Of a stretch of DNA of 64,000 bases, positions 5,098 to 53,372 are shown one piece after another. The stretch is from Bacteroidia bacterium (GTDB lineage: Bacteria > Bacteroidota > Bacteroidia > UKL13-3). Made by a program: the position numbers and the translations under genes. Location of the stretch: assembly GCA_965279165.1 (NCBI GenBank), contig OZ257140.1, positions 2,936,167 to 3,000,166 of the forward strand. Direction: 5' to 3'. The notes under the pieces were generated by a model. It had not been told where the DNA came from. It did not search any database and worked only from the letters and a program-made list of their open reading frames with translations. Numbering within the stretch: the stretch's first letter is position 1; each line of letters begins with the position of its first letter.

Positions 5098-5611
5098 TAC
5101 TTAATGTTTTAGTTGGTGAGAATGCTGAAAAGGGGACTTCTATTTTTAAGAGGCAAGAGGCAAGAGGCATTAGACAGGAGGCAAGAGTATGTTGCCTTAT
5201 AAATTTTCATACAAATGGAAATGATTCTCCGTATTGAAGTACTAATTGTTTTAGTTACAGAGCCAATTTATTTTCTGACTTTTCAATAATTGTAGCCCTG
5301 AAAGGGCGACATATCCAAGCATCCTGCGAAGCAGGTTGATAACCGATAAAATTATTCATCACAGCCCTGAAAGGGCGACATATCTTTTTCGAAGAGTTAA
5401 GTTTTAGTACCAGATGTTTTGTGGTGCATTACATTGTAGGTAAGCTTTTTTGTTAAAAAGATGACTGACAAGGTAGTTTCTATTGTATCCAATCGCACCA
5501 CTGCACCATTCCCCATTCATAATTCATAATTCATAATTGTATCTCAAACTTCTATTAATCTGTATTATTCTACTTTAATAAACTATCTTTGATTTACAAA
5601 TAAATACCACT

Positions 5612-6244: not shown

Positions 6245-6249
6245 CTACA

Positions 6250-6318
6250 CTTATATCTTATAACTTATATCTTATAACTTATATCTTATAACTTATAACT
6301 TATATCTTAAACTTATCC
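6250..6318. repeat. CTTATATCTTATAA/AACTTAT tandem repeat island between convergent genes
   Basis: (cttatatcttataa)x3 plus partial units fill the whole gap between the stop of 5612-6244 (+) and the stop of 6313-7560 (-). Reverse-orientation relatives (ataagtt/ataagag) are at 50660-50697, directly after the 1606-aa gene stop. Confidence 0.85.
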
Positions 6319-13212: not shown

Positions 13213-13430
13213 GTTGTTTTTAATTTATTAAAGTGAGAAATGCACCAATTTTTCATAAAGCAATTCAACACTATACCGCAAATATAATCATGGCTGTTGG
13301 TAATCTGATTATCTTTTATTGAAAGTACCCATGAACCCATTCATCCAATCATTCATAATCCATTCCCGCATGTAAAAACTACGTCGTGCCTCCTTGTTTT
13401 TATCGCGCGGGATTGATTCGCCTAGCGTCT

Positions 13431-13480
13431 CATCAACATCCATCCAATCATTCATCATTCATAATTCATCATTCACATCG
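13431..13480. repeat. CATTCAT/CATCCAT heptamer tandem repeat island
   Basis: The sequence catcaacatccatccaatcattcatcattcataattcatcattcacatc has a second block at 13335-13363. The same family is at 38681-38710, 5515-5540 (cataatt), and in reverse orientation at 51344-51430. Confidence 0.85.
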
Positions 13481-15678: not shown

Positions 15679-16836
15679 ATGGAAGAATTGAATATCAGTT
15701 TCAAAGAGACAGAAAACCAGCAGATGGTAAAGCAAATGGCAAAGGATTTTGCAGAAAAATATATCCGACCTTTTGTGATGGAATGGGATGAAGCACAAAA
15801 ATTCCCTAAAGAAACAATGCAGGAAATGGGAAAACTGGGATTACTAGGGGTTTTGGTTCCTGAAAAATACCAGGGCGCAGGATTGGGTTATTATGAATAT
15901 GTTGCGGCTATACAAGAAATTACGAAAGTGTGCAGTTCTGTTGGTTTATCCATGGCTGCGCATAACTCTTTGTGTACCGGACATATTTTGCAATTTGGAA
16001 ATGAAGAACAGAAAGAAAGATGGCTTCCTAAACTTGCAACAGGCGAATGGATTGGAGCCTGGGGTCTAACGGAGGCCAATACCGGTAGCGATGCATTGCG
16101 AATGAAATGTGTAGCTAAGCAAGATGGAGATCATTGGATTTTAAACGGCGCTAAAAATTGGATTACACATGGTATTTCGGGAGAAGTTGCCGTGGTGTTA
16201 GCGCGTACAGGCGACTTATTGGATTCGAATGGCATCACCGCATTTGTGGTTGAACGTGGAACACCCGGATTCAGGGGTGGAAAAAAGGAAAATAAATTAG
16301 GAATGCGTGCTTCAGAAACGGCAGAAATGATTTTTGAAGATTGCCGTATACCCGCTACCCAAATTTTGGGAAAAGTAGGAGAGGGTTTTAAACAAGCAAT
16401 GAAGGTATTGGATGGAGGACGCATATCGATTGCTGCACTCTCTTTGGGTATTGCAAAGGGAGCATATGAAGCTGCGAAAAAATATGCACAGGAAAGGGAA
16501 CAATTCGGACAGCCAATTGCTAATTTTCAAGCGATTTCTTTCAAACTTGCCGACATGGCTACACGCATTGAAGCTGCTGAATTATTGACTTATCAAGCTG
16601 CTGATCTAAAAATGAAAGGCAAGCCTATGACCAAAGAGTCGGCAATGGCAAAATACTATGCCAGTGAAGTTGCAGTTTTTGCATCCAATGAGGCCGTTCA
16701 AATATTTGGAGGATATGGATATACAAAAGATTTTCCGGTAGAGAAATTTTATCGCGATTCAAAACTGTGTACCATCGGTGAAGGAACAAGTGAAATTCAG
16801 AAGCTGGTTATAGCCAGAGCGATATTGAAGGACTGA
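15679..16836 (+). CDS. acyl-CoA dehydrogenase (short/branched-chain type)
   Basis: 385 aa with the ACAD signature ([14 protein letters not shown]), an FAD-binding region, and a C-terminal catalytic Glu region ([15 protein letters not shown]). Confidence 0.9.
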
Positions 16837-16842
16837 AGGGAG

Positions 16843-16887
16843 GGGGTGATGGCTAATGGGTAATGGCTGAAGGGTAATGGCGCATGG
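16843..16887. repeat. GGGTAATGG-type tandem repeat island, left arm of an inverted-repeat pair flanking the four-helix-bundle gene
   Basis: The sequence ggggtgatggctaatgggtaatggctgaagggtaatggcgcatgg begins 7 nt after the acd stop. It is the reverse complement of the CCATTACCC island at 17723-17780. Confidence 0.8.
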
Positions 16888-17331
16888 TCGCATAATAACA
16901 ATCATCATACGAATTCAATAATTGAAGTTAAAAATGTATTCACCGAAAAAGCTTTGAATTATTTCTGTTTATTGTAAAAATTTCCTAAGCATACCAAAAG
17001 AAAGTTTATCAAAGATTTCTAATTGTAGTTTACTCTGCAGATGGATCAAAAGTTGAAAAGTAAATACCTACAATAATTTGGCATTGATAGTATTTACTGC
17101 CATTAACAGGCTTAGTCAAGAACAATGCTATTTACAGCCTAAAATTGATTTTGGTATATTTGCAAATAAACATGTTTCGAATAGGCATTGTGCTTCAACT
17201 CCCTACTATTGCCAATTCTGATACCGTTAAACACTATTTAATTTCTGCATAAAGAAACAAGAATCACAATAGCTTTCTATTAGTAGTTACTTCATTTTTG
17301 GGCTTTATTTGTCTTTCTAACCTATGAAATC

Positions 17332-17688
17332 ATGAGAAATTTCAGAGAACTCAAAATATGGGATAATTCAATGCAGATTATCATTCCTATTTATATAATC
17401 ACCAGCAAATTTCCATTGGAAGAGCGATTTGGATTGACTTCGCAAATGCGAAGAGCGTCTGTTTCAATTGCCTCTAATATTGCAGAAGGTTGCAGCAGAA
17501 ACAGCAACAAAGAATTCAGAAGATTTCTTGAAATATCCTTAGGTTCCGCCTACGAACTCGAAACCCAATCCATTATAGCCGGAGAGCTTGGCTATATATC
17601 CAAAGAACAATTAGCCGGCTTCCTTCTGAATTTTGTTGCGTTACAAAAACAAATCAACACACTAATTAATAAACTAAAAATCGAATGA
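17332..17688 (+). CDS. four-helix-bundle protein (23S rRNA intervening-sequence protein family, TIGR02436-like)
   Basis: 118 aa. The motifs FRELKIWDNSMQI ... RASVSIASNIAEGCSRNSNKEFRRFLEISLGSAYELETQ are characteristic of this family. A paralog is at 51946-52296. Confidence 0.85.
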   Translation: MRNFRELKIWDNSMQIIIPIYIITSKFPLEERFGLTSQMRRASVSIASNIAEGCSRNSNKEFRRFLEISLGSAYELETQSIIAGELGYISKEQLAGFLLNFVALQKQINTLINKLKIE

Positions 17689-17722
17689 CCAATTTCTCTT
17701 CCAAATTTGGAATCTTCGCAGC

Positions 17723-17780
17723 CCCATTACCCATTACCCATCTGCCATTACCTATTACCCATAAGCCATTACCCATCAGC
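17723..17780. repeat. CCATTACCC-type tandem repeat island, right arm of the inverted-repeat pair
   Basis: The sequence cccattacccattacccatctgccattacctattacccataagccattacccatcagc is the reverse complement of the 16843-16887 island. Confidence 0.8.
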
Positions 17781-17876
17781 TATAAGCTACATTCCTTGCT
17801 TAATCCAAATATTTCCCCTAATATTGCATCCCCCTTAAAATAAGAAGGGAGACTTAGGGAAAGGAGGTGTATAAAA

Positions 17877-18074
17877 ATGATATTCGTAAACGTAAAAGAA
17901 AATGAATCTTTAGACAGAGCGCTAAAGAAATTTAAAAAGAAGTTTGAGAAGACCGGAGTTGTAAAAGAACTGCGCGAGCGTCAATCATTCACCAAACCTT
18001 GTATTAAGAAACGACAAGAGAAAATTCATGCATCCTATAAGTTGTTTTTACAACAACAGGAAAGCAATGCTTAA
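17877..18074 (+). CDS. rpsU: 30S ribosomal protein S21
   Basis: 65 aa with VNVKENESLDRALKKFKKKFEKTGVVKELRERQSFTKP, matching the bS21 family. A strong Shine-Dalgarno-like GGAAAGGAGGTG lies 8 nt upstream of the ATG. Confidence 0.9.
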   Translation: MIFVNVKENESLDRALKKFKKKFEKTGVVKELRERQSFTKPCIKKRQEKIHASYKLFLQQQESNA

Positions 18075-18110
18075 TGCAGTAATTTCTAACTTATAACAAG
18101 CAATTATTAA

Positions 18111-18145
18111 ACCCTGTAGCTATTAGTTACAGGGTTTTTTGTTTT
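18111..18145 (+). terminator. rho-independent terminator after rpsU
   Basis: accctgta-gctattag-tacagggt is an 8-bp stem, followed by tttttgtttt. Confidence 0.8.
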
Positions 18146-20132: not shown

Positions 20133-20207
20133 CGAAATGATAGGACATTGGACTTGGTCATTGGTGCATTACCAATGACCAATCGCCATTGACCAATGAC
20201 TTAAAAA

Positions 20208-20507
20208 GCCGTTGTAGCTCAGTGGTAGAGCATCCGCCGGTTGGCGGAGAAGAGGTTGAGAAGATAGGAAGTGAAGAAATAAGCCGTTGTAGCTCAGTGG
20301 TAGAGCATCCGCCGGTTGGCGGAGAAGAGGTTGAGAAGATAGGAAGTGAAGAAATAAGCCGTTGTAGCTCAGTGGTAGAGCATCCGCCGGTTGGCGGAGA
20401 AGAGGTTGAGAAGATAGGAAGTGAAGAAATAAGCCGTTGTAGCTCAGTGGTAGAGCATCCGCCGGTTGGCGGAGAAGAGGTTGAGAAGATAGGAAGTGAA
20501 GAAATAA
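20208..20507 (+). repeat. tandem array of four identical 75-bp units, each a 3'-truncated tRNA-Thr(GGT) copy with the anticodon arm replaced by a perfect GC hairpin
   Basis: The unit gccgttgtagctcagtggtagagca|tccgccggttggcgga|gaagaggttgagaagataggaagtgaagaaataa starts at 20208, 20283, 20358 and 20433. Its first 25 nt equal the 5' acceptor strand and D-arm of the tRNA at 20508. The next segment is a 6-bp/4-nt hairpin (tccgcc ggtt ggcgga), and the tail is purine-rich. The T-arm and 3' acceptor strand are absent. All three frames are open on both strands, so the ORF-track entries here are artefacts. Confidence 0.85.
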
Positions 20508-20579
<72 letters not shown>

Positions 20580-20837
20580 CAAGTAGTTGGGGAAGAAGGT
20601 CAAGGGTACTTCCGATTAATATCGGAACCGAAAGCTTTCAAGTTCTTTCAACCACAAAGATTTGGAAGGAAAAATAGCAAGTATAGGTGAATAAGGTTGC
20701 TATTTCGGTCAAAAAACTATACAAAGGGTGTAGTTAACGTGAGGAGAGAAGGGTTAATAAAGCAGAAACTAAAATGCAATCGATTAACCAATGAAAAAGG
20801 AAACTCAATATAAATAAAACATAAAAATTAAATCAGT

Positions 20838-22025: not shown

Positions 22026-22088
22026 TCATAGTTTAAGTAGATACTGAATGTTGGGTAATTTGATTATCCAACATTTGGTGTCTCATAA

Positions 22089-22322
22089 ACGAGTGTAGTT
22101 CAAGGGTAGAATAGTCCCGCACGTGCGGGATTGATGGGAGTTCGGTAGAGGAAAAAATTGATGTTGGTTTTAAAAGTTGAATAATGAAAAAGTTAAAACC
22201 AATAAACGAGTGTAGTTCAAGGGTAGAATAGTCCCGCACGTGCGGGATTGATGGGAGTTCGGTAGAGAAAAAAATTGATATTGGTTTTAAAAGTTGAATA
22301 ATGAAAAAGTTAAAACCAATAA
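22089..22322 (+). repeat. two tandem 117-bp units, each a 3'-truncated tRNA-Trp copy with the anticodon arm replaced by a palindromic GC hairpin
   Basis: Units start at 22089 and 22206 and differ at 2 positions. Each is acgagtgtagttcaagggtagaata (= the tRNA-Trp 5' acceptor strand and D-arm), then gtcccgcacgtgcgggat (cccgcacgtgcggg is a perfect palindrome), then tgatgggagttcgg (variable loop and 5' T-stem), then an AT-rich tail containing the 10-bp hairpin ttggttttaa...ttaaaaccaa. The ORF-track entry 22033-22431 (-) is an artefact of this. Confidence 0.85.
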
Positions 22323-22393
22323 ACGAGTGTAGTTCAAGGGTAGAATAGCGGTCTCCAAAACCGTTGATGGGAGTTCGAATCTCTCCACTCGTG
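22323..22393 (+). tRNA. tRNA-Trp (anticodon CCA)
   Basis: Acceptor acgagtg/cactcgt, anticodon stem gcggt/accgt with loop ctCCAaa, and T-arm gggag-ttcgaat-ctctc. It sits between tuf and secE, the conserved position. Confidence 0.85.
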
Positions 22394-22459
22394 CAAAAGT
22401 AACTTGGGAGTTCGAATGGCATCAATAGCAAGGAGTTCGCCCATGTAATTGCAAAAGCA

Positions 22460-36499: not shown

Positions 36500-36576
36500 T
36501 GTTGAAGTGTTGCCCACCTTCGCTAAAGCTACGGTGGACGAGTGTTGAAGTGTTAAGGTGTTAAGGTGTTGAAGTA
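36500..36576. repeat. GTGTTRAG octamer tandem repeat island
   Basis: The sequence gtgttgaagtgttgcc ... gagtgttgaagtgttaaggtgttaaggtgttgaagtac starts at the stop codon of 35801-36499. The repeats bracket a short hairpin ccacc-ttcgctaaagctac-ggtgg. Confidence 0.8.
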
Positions 36577-36712
36577 CGGGTAGTAGAGACCACTCAACAG
36601 TTTTCGTGACTAGGCCTAATTACGTATTTACTCAATTACTTAATTACTTCTTTCATGTTTTTTGTCACAAATGACCTAAGTCATCTTTAATAAGCCAGTT
36701 ATGGGTTAACCT

Positions 36713-38545: not shown

Positions 38546-38578
38546 GTAGGAGGCAGGAGGCAGGAGGCAAGAGGCAGG
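38546..38578. repeat. GGCARGAG purine-rich tandem repeat
   Basis: ggaggcaggaggcaggaggcaagaggcagg starts right after the stop of 36713-38545. A relative, agaggcaagaggcaagaggcattagacaggaggcaagag, is at 5149-5187 after mltG. Confidence 0.8.
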
Positions 38579-38700
38579 TGTGGGATATTTGAATCTGTTT
38601 TGGTATAAAGTACCATGCAAGAATTCAATCGCCGCATGTAAAAAGGTATCGTACCTCCTTGTTTTTATCTTGCGGGATTAAAACATTCATCATTCATCAT

Positions 38701-39084
38701 TCATCCCTCATAAAACTCAATAGGCAAATGATCCGGATCTGCAATAAAGGTAAATCGTTTGCCGGTAGTTTCATCCGTGCGAATTGGTTCAGGTAGGATA
38801 TTCTTTGCTTTTAAATAGTCAATCCAGTTGTCGAGATTGTCAACTGTAAATGCAATATGTCGTAAGCCCATTGCTTCGGGGTAGGAGGGTCGAGCCGGGG
38901 CTGAAGGGAAAGTAAAAAGTTCAAGTCTATAATTTCCATCTAACGAAAGGTCAATTTTATGGCTATTTCGGTCTGCCCGATACGTTTCATTCACCAATTT
39001 AAATCCTAGAATTTCGATATAAAATTTACGGGACAACGCAAGATTGGAACAAATAATGGCAACATGATGGATTCCTTTTAGCAT
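38701..39084 (-). CDS. VOC family protein (glyoxalase/bleomycin resistance/dioxygenase fold)
   Basis: 127 aa; GIHHVAIICSNLALSRKFYIEILGF ... LRHIAFTVDNL are the paired beta-alpha-beta-beta-beta modules typical of VOC proteins. Confidence 0.75.
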   Translation of the reverse strand: MLKGIHHVAIICSNLALSRKFYIEILGFKLVNETYRADRNSHKIDLSLDGNYRLELFTFPSAPARPSYPEAMGLRHIAFTVDNLDNWIDYLKAKNILPEPIRTDETTGKRFTFIADPDHLPIEFYEG

Positions 39085-50661: not shown

Positions 50662-50980
50662 TAGTTATAAGTTATAAGATATAAGAGATAAGAGAGCAAA
50701 GTCTATAAAAGTTTAAGGTTAGGAAAATTTTCTCGAAGCAGGATAACGGGCAGGGGGTGAGCGGCATGTTTGAGCTCCTTTTTATTTGACTTGGATGAAG
50801 TTTTAAAAATATAGCAGCCTCAGGTGGTTACAAATGACTTGAAGCAAGGTGAAAATAAAAAGAGCGAGTAGCGAACACCCGGCCATGTAGTAATGCGAAG
50901 AAAATAATAATTTGAAATACGTGAGCTAGCCGCATTTACTACATGGGGCCCGCATAAAAAAATAAAGAGAAAATTATTGT

Positions 50981-51343
50981 TTAGTGTTTGTGGTCGTCCC
51001 CAAACACATTTAATTTATGTCCTAAGGCATGCGAAAAATCACGAATATCTTCGGCAACTTCTTTGTTATCGGTTGCGCGTTCAAAGGTGTCTGCAAGGGT
51101 TGCTATGGTTTGAAATAGGAACAAATTCATTTCTTCCACATTCATGTCTTTTGTCCATAGGTCGATGCGCAATGCATTTTGTTGCAGCCCATCCCATAAA
51201 GATAAAATTACTGATTTTGCTTCTTGTTTACCATCCACATCTGCATCATCCGCCTCCCATTGAATGGATAACGGTAGATTGTCTTTGTCTAAATGAATAC
51301 TGAAATTTATGTGTGATGATTTTACGATTTCCGGAGTTGACAT
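50981..51343 (-). CDS. possible gliding motility protein GldC (tentative)
   Basis: 120 aa, soluble. The motifs SLWDG ... LRIDLWTKDM ... EEMNLF are as I remember them from the GldC family; this call is not verified. Confidence 0.4.
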   Translation of the reverse strand: MSTPEIVKSSHINFSIHLDKDNLPLSIQWEADDADVDGKQEAKSVILSLWDGLQQNALRIDLWTKDMNVEEMNLFLFQTIATLADTFERATDNKEVAEDIRDFSHALGHKLNVFGDDHKH

Positions 51344-51430
51344 GATGAATTATGAATTATGAATTATGAATTATGAATGATGAATGATGAATGATGAATG
51401 ATGAGTTATGAGTTATGAGTTATGAGTTAT
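51344..51430. repeat. ATGAATT/ATGAATG/ATGAGTT heptamer tandem repeat island
   Basis: It has (atgaatt)x3, (atgaatg)x4 and (atgagtt)x4 in tandem, directly abutting the GldC-like start codon. It is the reverse complement of the CATTCAT islands at 13431-13480 and 38681-38710. Confidence 0.85.
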
Positions 51431-51461
51431 GAGTTATTGGGTATAATTGACTGCAAATATA

Positions 51462-51791
51462 TTATTTAGGAAGGGCATTTTTTAATTCCTTCAGAAAAGC
51501 TTTCAGGTTGGTTAATTTTTCCAGTAAAACTGCCTGTGGTTCAATATGGGGTTGGGTTTTTAAGTATGCTTTTGCGCCTTCTAAGGTCATGCCTTTTTCT
51601 TTAACCAGGTGATGAATGAGTTTGATTATTTGAATATCTTTTTCGGTATATTTTCGTGTACCTTTTTCTGATTTATAAGGTTTAATCTGTTTAAATTCTT
51701 TCTCCCAAAACCGAATCAAAGAAGGAGCTTCGCTTATTAAAGAGGCAACTTCGGAGATGGAGAAGAGGGTTTTGGTTGGTGGATTTTGCAT
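51462..51791 (-). CDS. MerR-family transcriptional regulator
   Basis: 109 aa; the N-terminal HTH FSISEVASLISEAPSLIRFWEKEF is followed by a short helical C-terminus. Confidence 0.7.
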   Translation of the reverse strand: MQNPPTKTLFSISEVASLISEAPSLIRFWEKEFKQIKPYKSEKGTRKYTEKDIQIIKLIHHLVKEKGMTLEGAKAYLKTQPHIEPQAVLLEKLTNLKAFLKELKNALPK

Positions 51792-51945
51792 TTAAAGCTA
51801 CTTTAATTGGTTGAAGGCAATTGGTCAAAAGCGATCGGTCCAAAGCATTCTGTTGAAATTAAATGGTCGAAAGTTATCGATTCAAAGTTATTGGTTAAAA
51901 CTAAATTAGAAAGCGCAATTTGAATAATTGACATGAAAATTTTAT

Positions 51946-52296: not shown

Positions 52297-52409
52297 AAAA
52301 TTAGGCTAGTATTACATACAATAATAATAAACATTACATAAATAAGCTTTATTTCATCAATCATTTGACTGATTGCTTTGGACCGATCGCTTTGGACTGA
52401 TTGCTACAT

Positions 52410-53372
52410 CTAGTCAAACGACTGCGCCGGTCTTTCCGCCATTTCTCGCATCGAGGCATAATCGGCTTCCGTTAAATCGTTGAAGAAATAATTGATTGGA
52501 TTGATTTTGTTTTTACCGCGAATAACTTCATAATGTAAATGTGGTGCAGCTGATAATCCCGTATTACCAACAAATCCAAGTAATTGGCCGCGTTTAATGG
52601 TTTGTCCCGGTCTTACTTTTACCCGCGACATATGTGCATATAAAGTTTGGTATCCGAAACCATGGTTAACTACCACATGATTTCCATATCCACGATGTCC
52701 TAATTCTACCAACGCGATTCGGCCATTGCCGGTGGCATAAATTGGAGTGCCGGTTGGTGCCGTAAAATCAATACCGGTATGCATCTTATATGTTTTGTAA
52801 ATAGGATGTAAACGATAGCCGAATCCGGATGCCATATGTTTAAGCTGACGGTTGGTGATGGGTTGGATTGCCGGAATTGCAGCAAGGAAATCGCTTTTGC
52901 GAGCTGCCAACCTTGCCAATTGATCAAAAGAAACGGATTGTAAATTAAGGTCGGAAGTTAATTTATCCATCTTTTTTGATAAATCAATTACAATGTCTGA
53001 ATGATCAAATCCTTTTAGCTTTTCATAATTGTCGTTGATATAAGCTGGTTTAGTGCGTTTAATTGGGTCGGTTTCAAAAATTGCACGGTAAATGGAGGCA
53101 TCTTTATCTTGTAAATCAATTAATTGTCGGTTCATCCGCTCGAGCCGTTGGTTCATTCGTTGGGTTTGCAGTTGATAATCTTCAATTTCCCTTCTTAATA
53201 TTTTTTCTTTGGGAGAGTCGATATAATTATAAGCCAATAAAAGTATTGCAGAACCCGCTACGATTGAAGCGGACAAAAAACCAAACACCCGCAAAATCAC
53301 CACCCTAACGCTTGTGGTCACTTTTTCGAAATCAAGACTATGAGGATTATAAAAGTATTTTATTTTTGCCAT
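52410..53372 (-). CDS. M23 family peptidase with N-terminal TM and coiled-coil (EnvC-like)
   Basis: It has a TM helix, a coiled-coil (LQTQRMNQRLERMNRQLIDLQDK), and the M23 motifs HTGIDF and APHLHYEV. Confidence 0.85.
   Translation of the reverse strand: MAKIKYFYNPHSLDFEKVTTSVRVVILRVFGFLSASIVAGSAILLLAYNYIDSPKEKILRREIEDYQLQTQRMNQRLERMNRQLIDLQDKDASIYRAIFETDPIKRTKPAYINDNYEKLKGFDHSDIVIDLSKKMDKLTSDLNLQSVSFDQLARLAARKSDFLAAIPAIQPITNRQLKHMASGFGYRLHPIYKTYKMHTGIDFTAPTGTPIYATGNGRIALVELGHRGYGNHVVVNHGFGYQTLYAHMSRVKVRPGQTIKRGQLLGFVGNTGLSAAPHLHYEVIRGKNKINPINYFFNDLTEADYASMREMAERPAQSFD

Follow-up and report, generated by a model that had tools for sequence, protein, structure and literature searches.

A candidate intervening-sequence-like gene cassette outside rRNA: a four-helix-bundle gene enclosed by inverted heptamer arrays between acd and rpsU

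Introduction

Between the acyl-CoA dehydrogenase gene acd and the ribosomal protein S21 gene rpsU of a Bacteroidia bacterium (contig OZ257140.1), within the 64-kb stretch of DNA analysed here as a whole and called the window, lies a four-helix-bundle (4HB) gene bracketed by inverted repeats. Its open reading frame (ORF) belongs to the same family as those found in the loops of 23S rRNA intervening sequences (IVSs), and the locus raises the question of what such an arrangement is doing outside rRNA, and of whether its arms act in RNA, act in DNA, serve as binding sites for the encoded protein, or pair by coincidence. We refer to the unit of arm, spacer, gene and arm as cassette 1. Our reading, to which we give a probability of roughly 0.55, is that it is built like an IVS but lies outside rRNA, and that its arms would pair in read-through RNA and be cut there by RNase III.

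Several strands of earlier work bear on this question. In Coxiella burnetii, the 23S IVS at helix 45 carries an S23p (PF05635) ORF closed by a 28-bp terminal inverted-repeat stem, its 5′ arm contains two or three tandem GACAGAT heptamers depending on the strain, and RNase III cuts within the stem, which was demonstrated in vitro, the cleavage being mapped by rapid amplification of cDNA ends (PMC4990558). Members of the 4HB family have also been seen between cas genes (PMC3936711), and in rRNA insertions of candidate phyla radiation bacteria, where they were termed functionally uncharacterised. Separately, the heptamer GGGAATC was reported at ~186 sites in Xanthomonas, with 70–75 convergent pairs, and proposed to form G-quadruplex elements (PMC4692102), and intergenic heptamer repeats were described in Beggiatoaceae, Cyanobacteria and five Bacteroidetes (PMC4679880); neither report connects the repeats with 4HB genes. 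In the literature that we could search, which largely leaves out subscription journals, no description was found of inverted heptamer arrays around 4HB genes outside rRNA.

Results

An earlier note on this DNA, made from its letters, described the gene as bracketed by reverse-complementary arms built from one 9-mer. The arms are real, their coordinates and sequence are as described, and they are reverse complements, pairing over about 16837-16887 and 17723-17790; the repeat unit is not a 9-mer, it is the degenerate heptamer GGNTAAT. Tandem Repeats Finder (TRF) called both arms as heptamer arrays (GGGTAAT, 5.3 copies, at 16844-16880; CCCATTA, 7.7 copies, at 17723-17776), so that the 9-mer amounts to one heptamer unit plus the start of the next. 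Read unit by unit, the 5′ arm is GGGTGAT GGCTAAT GGGTAAT GGCTGAA GGGTAAT GGCGCAT, and the 3′ arm is CCATTAC CCATTAC CCATCTG CCATTAC CTATTAC CCATAAG CCATTAC CCATCAG CTATAAG. The motif GGGTAATGG has five exact matches in the 64 kb, where 0.41 would be expected and none of 100 shuffles reached five; all of them are either plus-strand copies within 16858-16880 or minus-strand copies within 17724-17774, and the claim that its islands are not randomly placed holds, for they occur nowhere else in the window.

The inverted repeat of cassette 1 comprises 44 nt at 80% complementarity (16844-16887 with 17724-17767) and can be extended to 60 nt at 70%. When the RNA of 16830-17800 was folded, the arms paired and closed the structure, giving the long-range stem that had been anticipated (minimum free energy (MFE) -229.8 kcal/mol, z = -4.0), and the arm-arm duplex alone was calculated at -63.3 kcal/mol, against -45.5 +/- 4.5 for dinucleotide shuffles. 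The whole unit occupies ~950 bp between the acd stop codon, which directly abuts the left arm, and the native promoter region of rpsU. The resemblance to an rRNA IVS outside any rRNA, which the earlier note had pointed out, is borne out: a closing stem with an ORF in its loop was found, and an Rfam scan of the window returned tRNAs only and no rRNA. A search of Rfam in and around cassette 1 gave no match even at E <= 1. A G-quadruplex reading of the G-rich arm was considered and set aside; it is possible for cassette 1, but most arms of the family lack G3 tracts. The 3′ arm also creates a spurious 52-aa ORF at 17685-17843 (PLPITHLPLPITH..., containing PLPITHLPLPITHKPLPIS), and such arm-derived ORFs resemble hypothetical proteins and the extended C-termini of certain 4HB entries such as P0051.

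The predicted 118-aa 4HB product matched PF05635 (E = 2e-36, 124.8 bits; cut-off 33.8) and TIGR02436 (E = 2e-36, 124.7 bits; cut-off 24), in agreement with the fold named in the earlier note. Its closest solved structure is Xcc0516 (PDB 2GSC, E = 5e-23), and by homology to 2GSC the protein would form a pentameric ring of four-helix bundles. The motif GxxRxxxSxxxNxxE, described for the family (PMC3936711) and for Xcc0516, is present; R41, S45, N49 and E52 are invariant in the 4HB alignment, and G34 is nearly so. The dN/dS (nonsynonymous to synonymous rate) ratio of the gene against its one ortholog at the same site (locus L085, below) is 0.07, and ratios across 4HB pairs range from 0.04 to 0.12; of the seven pairs with an estimate, six have saturated dS values (1.3-2.9). 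Judged by these ratios, the ORF is under strong purifying selection. Related protein clusters of the PF05635 family numbered 2,690 in one search and 3,829 in another, and no 4HB homolog was found in a phage collection.

The same family includes the Avd accessory proteins of diversity-generating retroelements (DGRs). The product scored 20.2 bits against the bAvd profile PF22296, below its 40-bit cut-off, and neither template-repeat/variable-repeat (TR/VR) direct repeats nor long direct repeats occur at cassette 1. The earlier note had stated that the window holds no reverse transcriptase; this stands in so far as no such gene adjoins either 4HB cassette of the window, and the window as a whole was not profile-scanned for one.

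The second of these cassettes lies on the minus strand, between genes of the same strand for an M23 peptidase (52410-53372) and a MerR-family protein (51462-51791). Its inverted pair (51817-51853 with 52368-52404) comprises 37 nt at 86% complementarity, with a duplex energy of -51.9 kcal/mol (z = -8.2), and its arm sequences are unrelated to those of cassette 1. In a window-wide scan for inverted repeats at most 2.5 kb apart, which gave 19 pairs, the pair of cassette 2 ranked first and that of cassette 1 second. Another 11 short-period arrays stand at gene boundaries of the window; none pairs complementarily, and none has a unit in common with either cassette.

To place these two loci in the family, one genome per species was scanned with a 13-sequence 4HB alignment, and the 80 best-matching loci from other genomes, holding 86 4HB genes, were kept. 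These come mostly from Bacteroidota, and also from Fibrobacteres, Desulfobacteraceae, KSB1, Chloroflexi, Elusimicrobiota, Clostridia, Ignavibacteria and Bryobacteraceae. Each gene was given a flank-inversion score, obtained by local alignment of its upstream flank with its reverse-complemented downstream flank. A score of at least 14 was reached by 56 of the 86 4HB genes (65%) against 6 of 342 control ORFs in the same loci (1.8%; Mann-Whitney p = 3e-32), and when the two flanks were printed side by side in this way, inverted arrays could be seen at nearly every locus. Around 4HB genes, short-period arrays are 17 times denser than in the rest of these loci. The period of the arms is 7 in 46 of 62 cases, 8 in 10 and 6 in 3, the paired length has a median of 27 nt (range 15-77), and in the 5′ arm G outnumbers C at 49 loci and is outnumbered by it at 9. 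The same pattern occurs on cyanobacterial and Riemerella plasmids. The arrangement of hairpin arms around the gene thus appears, from these comparisons, to be the normal state of a large 4HB family across bacterial phyla.

Because tandem arms of variable copy number cannot be reliably aligned for covariation, pairing scores within and between loci were used instead. The best partner of a left arm was the right arm of its own locus in 43 of the 80 loci, and in 66 of 80 the self pair lay above the 95th percentile of cross-locus pairs. Arms of different loci were cross-compatible in 67% of pairs whose proteins are at least 70% identical and in 1% of pairs below 50%, and arm similarity rose with protein identity (Mantel test, 0 of 2000 permutations); arms and gene therefore travel together. 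Among the 28 pairs with at least 70% protein identity, 13 have both neighbours in common and 11 have neither. At syntenic loci, own-arm pairing scored 17.9 and cross-locus pairing 11.0, with 49 pairs higher and 8 lower. One of the sites in this set follows a thiolase gene, and the cassettes there appear to be of different lineages and have different arms. We rejected the treatment of the thiolase-site cassettes as one orthologous set, since their proteins are 44-60% identical and have their nearest relatives at other sites, and they are therefore evidence of turnover and not of compensatory change. Taken together, the comparisons show the arms and the gene to be inherited, and to appear at new sites, as one block.

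The placement of the cassettes relative to their neighbours is also regular. In 71 of 81 cases the 4HB gene runs in the same direction as the genes on both sides of it (upstream neighbour alone 81 of 85, downstream alone 76 of 83). The left arm starts at a median of 6 nt past the upstream stop codon and ends 42 nt before the ATG; the right arm starts 14 nt after the 4HB stop codon and ends 13 nt before the downstream start. The hairpin therefore spans the whole intergenic gap, and at the base of its stem the host genes on either side would meet. Most cassettes leave too little space between the arms and the gene for a separate promoter or terminator, so that any transcript of the gene should contain both arms.

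The site itself was compared through a metagenome scan with Acd, which yielded 80 related loci. Eighteen related metagenomic contigs have an empty site, with an acd-rpsU spacer of 48-73 nt that carries the rpsU promoter box; the counterpart of this entire spacer in the window is 17791-17876, to the right of cassette 1. One ortholog, L085, is occupied (Acd 94% identical, 4HB 73% identical), with arms that have diverged and yet are still complementary heptamer arms, and with a spacer most of which cannot be aligned with that of the window. The L085 spacer holds a 54-aa hydrophobic ORF (439-603) that is absent from the window spacer. In 7 of the 80 relatives (L105, L106, L132, L138, L150, L154 and L162), a heptamer hairpin without an ORF stands directly after the acd stop codon, with units that differ by locus (CTAGTAA, GGTTTAT, GAATNNC, GGGTAGA/AAGGTAG and others). 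No 4HB gene was found in the 409 kb of contigs that bear these hairpins, which therefore exist independently of the gene. The 3′ end of acd resembles a hot spot for heptamer hairpins. The expectations of the earlier note that 4HB paralogs would have inverted pairs of their own, and that the unit would be present or absent as a block in relatives, agree with the second cassette of the window, with the survey counts, and with the eighteen empty sites and one occupied ortholog. No target-site duplication is visible at the arm borders of cassette 1, and no transposase or recombinase is encoded in the unit, which leaves room for an enzyme acting in trans.

The pattern extends to genes already known in other contexts. 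In Xanthomonas, orthologs of Xcc0516 (L170-L173; 4HB gene at ~2001-2381), which have 86-90% identity with the solved chain, are found within the accB-accC operon, with arms of GGGAATC units. The arms of X. citri pair over 30 nt at 87%, and its 4HB ORF reads through the 3′ arm to overlap the accC start, while in the X. campestris cassette the arm mismatches fall on each seventh base. On a Pseudanabaena plasmid (L167, 1286-1966), a 4HB gene between cas6 and cas4 has very long arrays (AGCTTTT / AAAAGCT / AAAAGCC), with an additional hairpin upstream.

The 444-nt spacer of cassette 1 is exceptionally long when compared with the median arm-to-ATG distance of the family. It contains no conserved ORF and no known RNA, and only its final ~110 nt, next to the ATG, can be aligned with L085. 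A promoter-like site lies at 17131-17162 (TTTACA-18-TATATT; TATATTTG). The first intrinsic terminator predicted after acd is at 18109-18137, past rpsU, and none is predicted between the acd stop codon and that point. Coordinates are collected in Table 1. The ORFs around cassette 1 encode KdtA, Acd, S21, an integrase and HPF, and those around cassette 2 an adhesin-like protein, GldC, MerR, an M23 peptidase and AlaRS. The presence of GldC, together with best homologs that belong to Bacteroidota, makes an origin in that phylum probable.

Table 1. Coordinates of the two cassettes and of the host genes of cassette 1 within the window.
Feature	Position	Strand	Basis or remark
acd, acyl-CoA dehydrogenase gene (upstream host gene)	15679..16836	+	PF00441/PF02771/PF02770, E = 1e-53 to 1e-23
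Cassette 1, 5′ arm (G-rich degenerate heptamer array)	16837..16887	+	TRF, inverted repeats, MFE fold
Cassette 1, AT-rich non-coding spacer	16888..17331	+	444 nt
Cassette 1, 4HB gene, 118 aa (PF05635/TIGR02436)	17332..17688	+	Profile matches
Cassette 1, 3′ arm (C-rich heptamer array, reverse complement of 5′ arm)	17723..17790	+	TRF, inverted repeats, duplex energy
Native rpsU upstream region, with TAATATTG -7-like box	17791..17876	+	Spacer comparison with L090-L159
rpsU, ribosomal protein S21 gene (downstream host gene)	17877..18074	+	PF01165, E = 7e-19
Cassette 2, 3′ arm (GCAATTGGTCAAAAGCGATCGGTCCAAAGCATTCTGT on + strand)	51817..51853	-	Inverted repeat, sequence
Cassette 2, second 4HB gene, 116 aa	51946-52296	-	tblastn 40% identity, E = 5e-16; TIGR02436 E = 6e-27 (94 bits)
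Cassette 2, 5′ arm (GACTGATTGCTTTGGACCGATCGCTTTGGACTGATTGC on + strand)	52357..52405	-	TRF, period 14, 2.8 copies

Other repeats of the window were recorded in passing. Heptamer or octamer arrays outside the cassettes lie at 5148-5187, 5515-5538, 6249-6316, 13447-13475, 36539-36577, 36617-36653, 38548-38578, 38684-38705, 50663-50693 and 51345-51437. Their polarity is consistent: G-rich arrays (AAGAGGC, AGGAGGC, GTGTTAAG) stand right after stop codons, and G-poor arrays of ATTCAT type just before start codons, with 13 units abutting the gldC start codon at 51343. A hairpin-forming element of ~45 nt (CCGCATGTAAAAA...CCTCCTTGTTTTTATC..GCGGG) without an Rfam match has two copies (13362-13412 and 38632-38676), each of which sits between two heptamer arrays. 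The sequence CAGCCCTGAAAGGGCGACATATC occurs twice (5291-5315 and 5362-5385), 70 nt apart, in a gene-free stretch between AAGAGGC and ATTCATA arrays. Two tRNA genes terminate longer tandem repeats. A 75-nt unit made of the 5′ part of tRNA-Thr(GGT) and a 30-nt spacer is repeated 4.4 times at 100% identity (20206-20532), only the last copy being a complete tRNA (20508-20580), and a 117-nt unit repeated 2.3 times at 98% (22085-22348) ends in tRNA-Trp (22323-22394).

Discussion

With no predicted terminator from acd through rpsU, transcription would be expected to read through from acd into RNA that contains both arms of cassette 1. The arms would then pair into an imperfect stem of ~40 bp (-63 kcal/mol), and at its base the stop codon of acd would come to lie next to the leader of rpsU. 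By analogy with the 23S rRNA IVS, whose ORF is of the same family, the most likely fate of this stem is to be cut by RNase III, which cuts long double-stranded RNA as well as the homologous rRNA element and should therefore release the 4HB message. Cleavage would free the 4HB mRNA from the messages of the host, and in separating them would let the insertion cost the host little. As to how a cassette might reach a new site, the simplest guess would be that it recombines into heptamer hairpins already present there. We infer both the cleavage and the mobility of cassette 1.

A number of observations weigh against this proposal. The stem of cassette 1 is interrupted by a 7-nt bulge, and the promoter-like site in its spacer could yield a 4HB transcript that lacks the 5′ arm. 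About one third of the surveyed 4HB genes score weakly for flank inversion, at L064 (Faecalibacter) and L069 (Flavobacterium) the arrays are direct and not inverted within the scored flanks, and the sample itself consists of the 80 best matches and is largely from Bacteroidota. A test for selection at the level of RNA was negative: 80 arm mismatches would permit a G·U pair in the sense RNA and 104 in the antisense strand alone (p = 0.09), and transversions dominate. Without a sense-strand bias towards G·U, selection could act on DNA, or recombination or slippage could keep the arms alike.

The closest parallel is with the 23S IVSs of Coxiella burnetii (helix 45) and Leptospira, which share with cassette 1 an ORF of the same family in the loop and a closing inverted-repeat stem, and, in Coxiella, tandem heptamers in the arm. 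Many IVSs have no ORF, as do the hairpins found at the acd-rpsU site, and IVSs are sporadically present without a known mobility gene, much as empty, hairpin-bearing and occupied acd-rpsU sites all occur. Like the ORF of ORF-bearing IVSs, that of cassette 1 is in sense with its host transcript, being co-directional with acd and rpsU. However, the cassettes lie in intergenic or mRNA contexts (acd-rpsU; accB-accC of Xanthomonas) and not in helix 25 or 45 of rRNA, and because location in rRNA is a defining feature of the IVS, we have not filed cassette 1 as one. Its arms are also longer arrays with locus-specific sequences, its ORF is strongly conserved whereas that of the Coxiella IVS decays, and RNase III cleavage, predicted for cassette 1, has been demonstrated for the rRNA elements. 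A second likeness is to the processing stalks of rRNA operons, in which long-range complementary sequences bracket a gene and are cut by RNase III, although there the cargo is not a protein-coding gene.

The most serious rival explanation, which is compatible with cleavage of the read-through RNA, is that the arms act at the level of DNA, either as ends or homology arms for moving the gene or as targets in the form of hairpins or cruciforms, and that the RNA stem is a by-product. The cassette might, for example, home by recombination into heptamer hairpins without ORFs. The missing G·U bias fits this explanation, as do close relatives of cassettes at non-syntenic sites, the differing lineages and arms at the thiolase site, the empty acd-rpsU sites, and the hairpins without ORFs at the exact site that is occupied in the window. 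On the other hand, the unit holds no transposase or recombinase, its borders show no evident target-site duplication, and the co-orientation with neighbours and exact filling of the gap indicate a constraint at the level of the transcript. Moreover, the arms of cassettes 1 and 2 are unrelated although they stand in the same genome, and a single sequence-specific enzyme therefore cannot serve both. For the same reasons the cassettes differ from transposons and miniature inverted-repeat transposable elements, which would lead one to expect a common terminal repeat in the two cassettes, a visible duplication and a transposase in the unit. We regard a DNA-level role as possible, though well short of probable.

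A broader and more speculative idea is that 4HB genes and intergenic heptamer arrays are halves of one widespread system. The protein of a given 4HB lineage would recognise the heptamer of that lineage and make, keep up or spread hairpins composed of it, in the manner of REPIN-RAYT but without a known nuclease fold; rRNA IVSs, the short tandemly repeated repetitive (STRR) sequences of cyanobacteria, the GGGAATC arrays of Xanthomonas and the Avd proteins of DGRs would then be its faces. We hold this to be doubtful. REPIN-RAYT systems likewise have one gene between inverted copies of a short repeat, which is also dispersed as hairpins; unlike there, the 4HB protein is not an HUH/Y1 transposase, and the arms differ between cassettes of one genome. 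The published heptamer arrays (GGGAATC in Xanthomonas; GGGGA(C/T)T and STRR in Nostoc; TAACTGA in Beggiatoaceae, Cyanobacteria and some Bacteroidetes) resemble the arms in being tandem 7-nt units at boundaries, often G-rich, but they are mostly single where the arms are paired, and they have been treated as G-quadruplex or translational elements.

On a further reading, the heptamer arrays would be binding sites of the 4HB protein, which would regulate or protect its own message or maintain arrays across the genome as RAYTs do. Arm sequence co-varies with protein sequence, yet common descent explains this equally well. The Xanthomonas arms use GGGAATC, the very heptamer reported at ~186 sites including 70 convergent pairs (PMC4692102); against such binding, the other 11 arrays of the window share no unit with either cassette, and hairpins without ORFs occur in 409 kb of contigs without a 4HB gene. 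The motif QxxRAxxSxxxNIAEG is invariant, which counts in favour; that the family has no known catalytic fold counts against. Avd, which has a homologous four-helix-bundle fold and pentameric ring, binds structured RNA, namely stem-loop RNA in DGRs (bioRxiv 10.1101/2023.10.23.563531); unlike Avd, the protein of cassette 1 has no neighbouring reverse transcriptase, template repeat or variable repeat, and its bAvd score is below the cut-off. On balance, we think such binding unlikely to account for the arms.

Two further explanations fare worse. Inverted repeats of 30-60 nt around a gene are, in principle, possible substrates for homologous inversion and could act as an on/off switch, but orientation is fixed, both in the co-directionality with upstream (81 of 85) and downstream (76 of 83) neighbours and in three independent samples of one locus (L001-L003), which makes a switch very improbable. 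It is barely credible that the arms are heptamer microsatellites paired by coincidence in a genome rich in them: the 11 further arrays at gene boundaries speak for this, but none of them forms a complementary pair, and both the enrichment over control genes (p = 3e-32) and the specificity of own-arm pairing (43 of 80 loci) are at odds with it. Nor is it credible that the gene is the stranded Avd of a decayed DGR, given that PF05635 is the commonest family of DGR accessory proteins (PMC10053308) but no reverse-transcriptase gene is adjacent, TR/VR direct repeats are absent and the bAvd model gives 20 bits against a cut-off of 40.

The PF05635 family is very large and its function is unexplained; most of its members may be IVS-like cassettes in mRNA contexts, and these contexts include essential operons, as with accB-accC. 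How rRNA intervening sequences arose and spread has been a question since about 1990; if most PF05635 members are mRNA cassettes, then host tolerance, processing by RNase III and the role of the protein would become testable in tractable organisms, among them Xanthomonas campestris, Flavobacterium and Nostoc. For annotation, the arms account for spurious ORFs such as that at 17685-17843 and for the C-terminal read-through extensions of 4HB proteins. For the unexplained heptamer repeats of Xanthomonas, Cyanobacteria, Beggiatoaceae and Bacteroidetes, the 4HB genes offer a first concrete partner.

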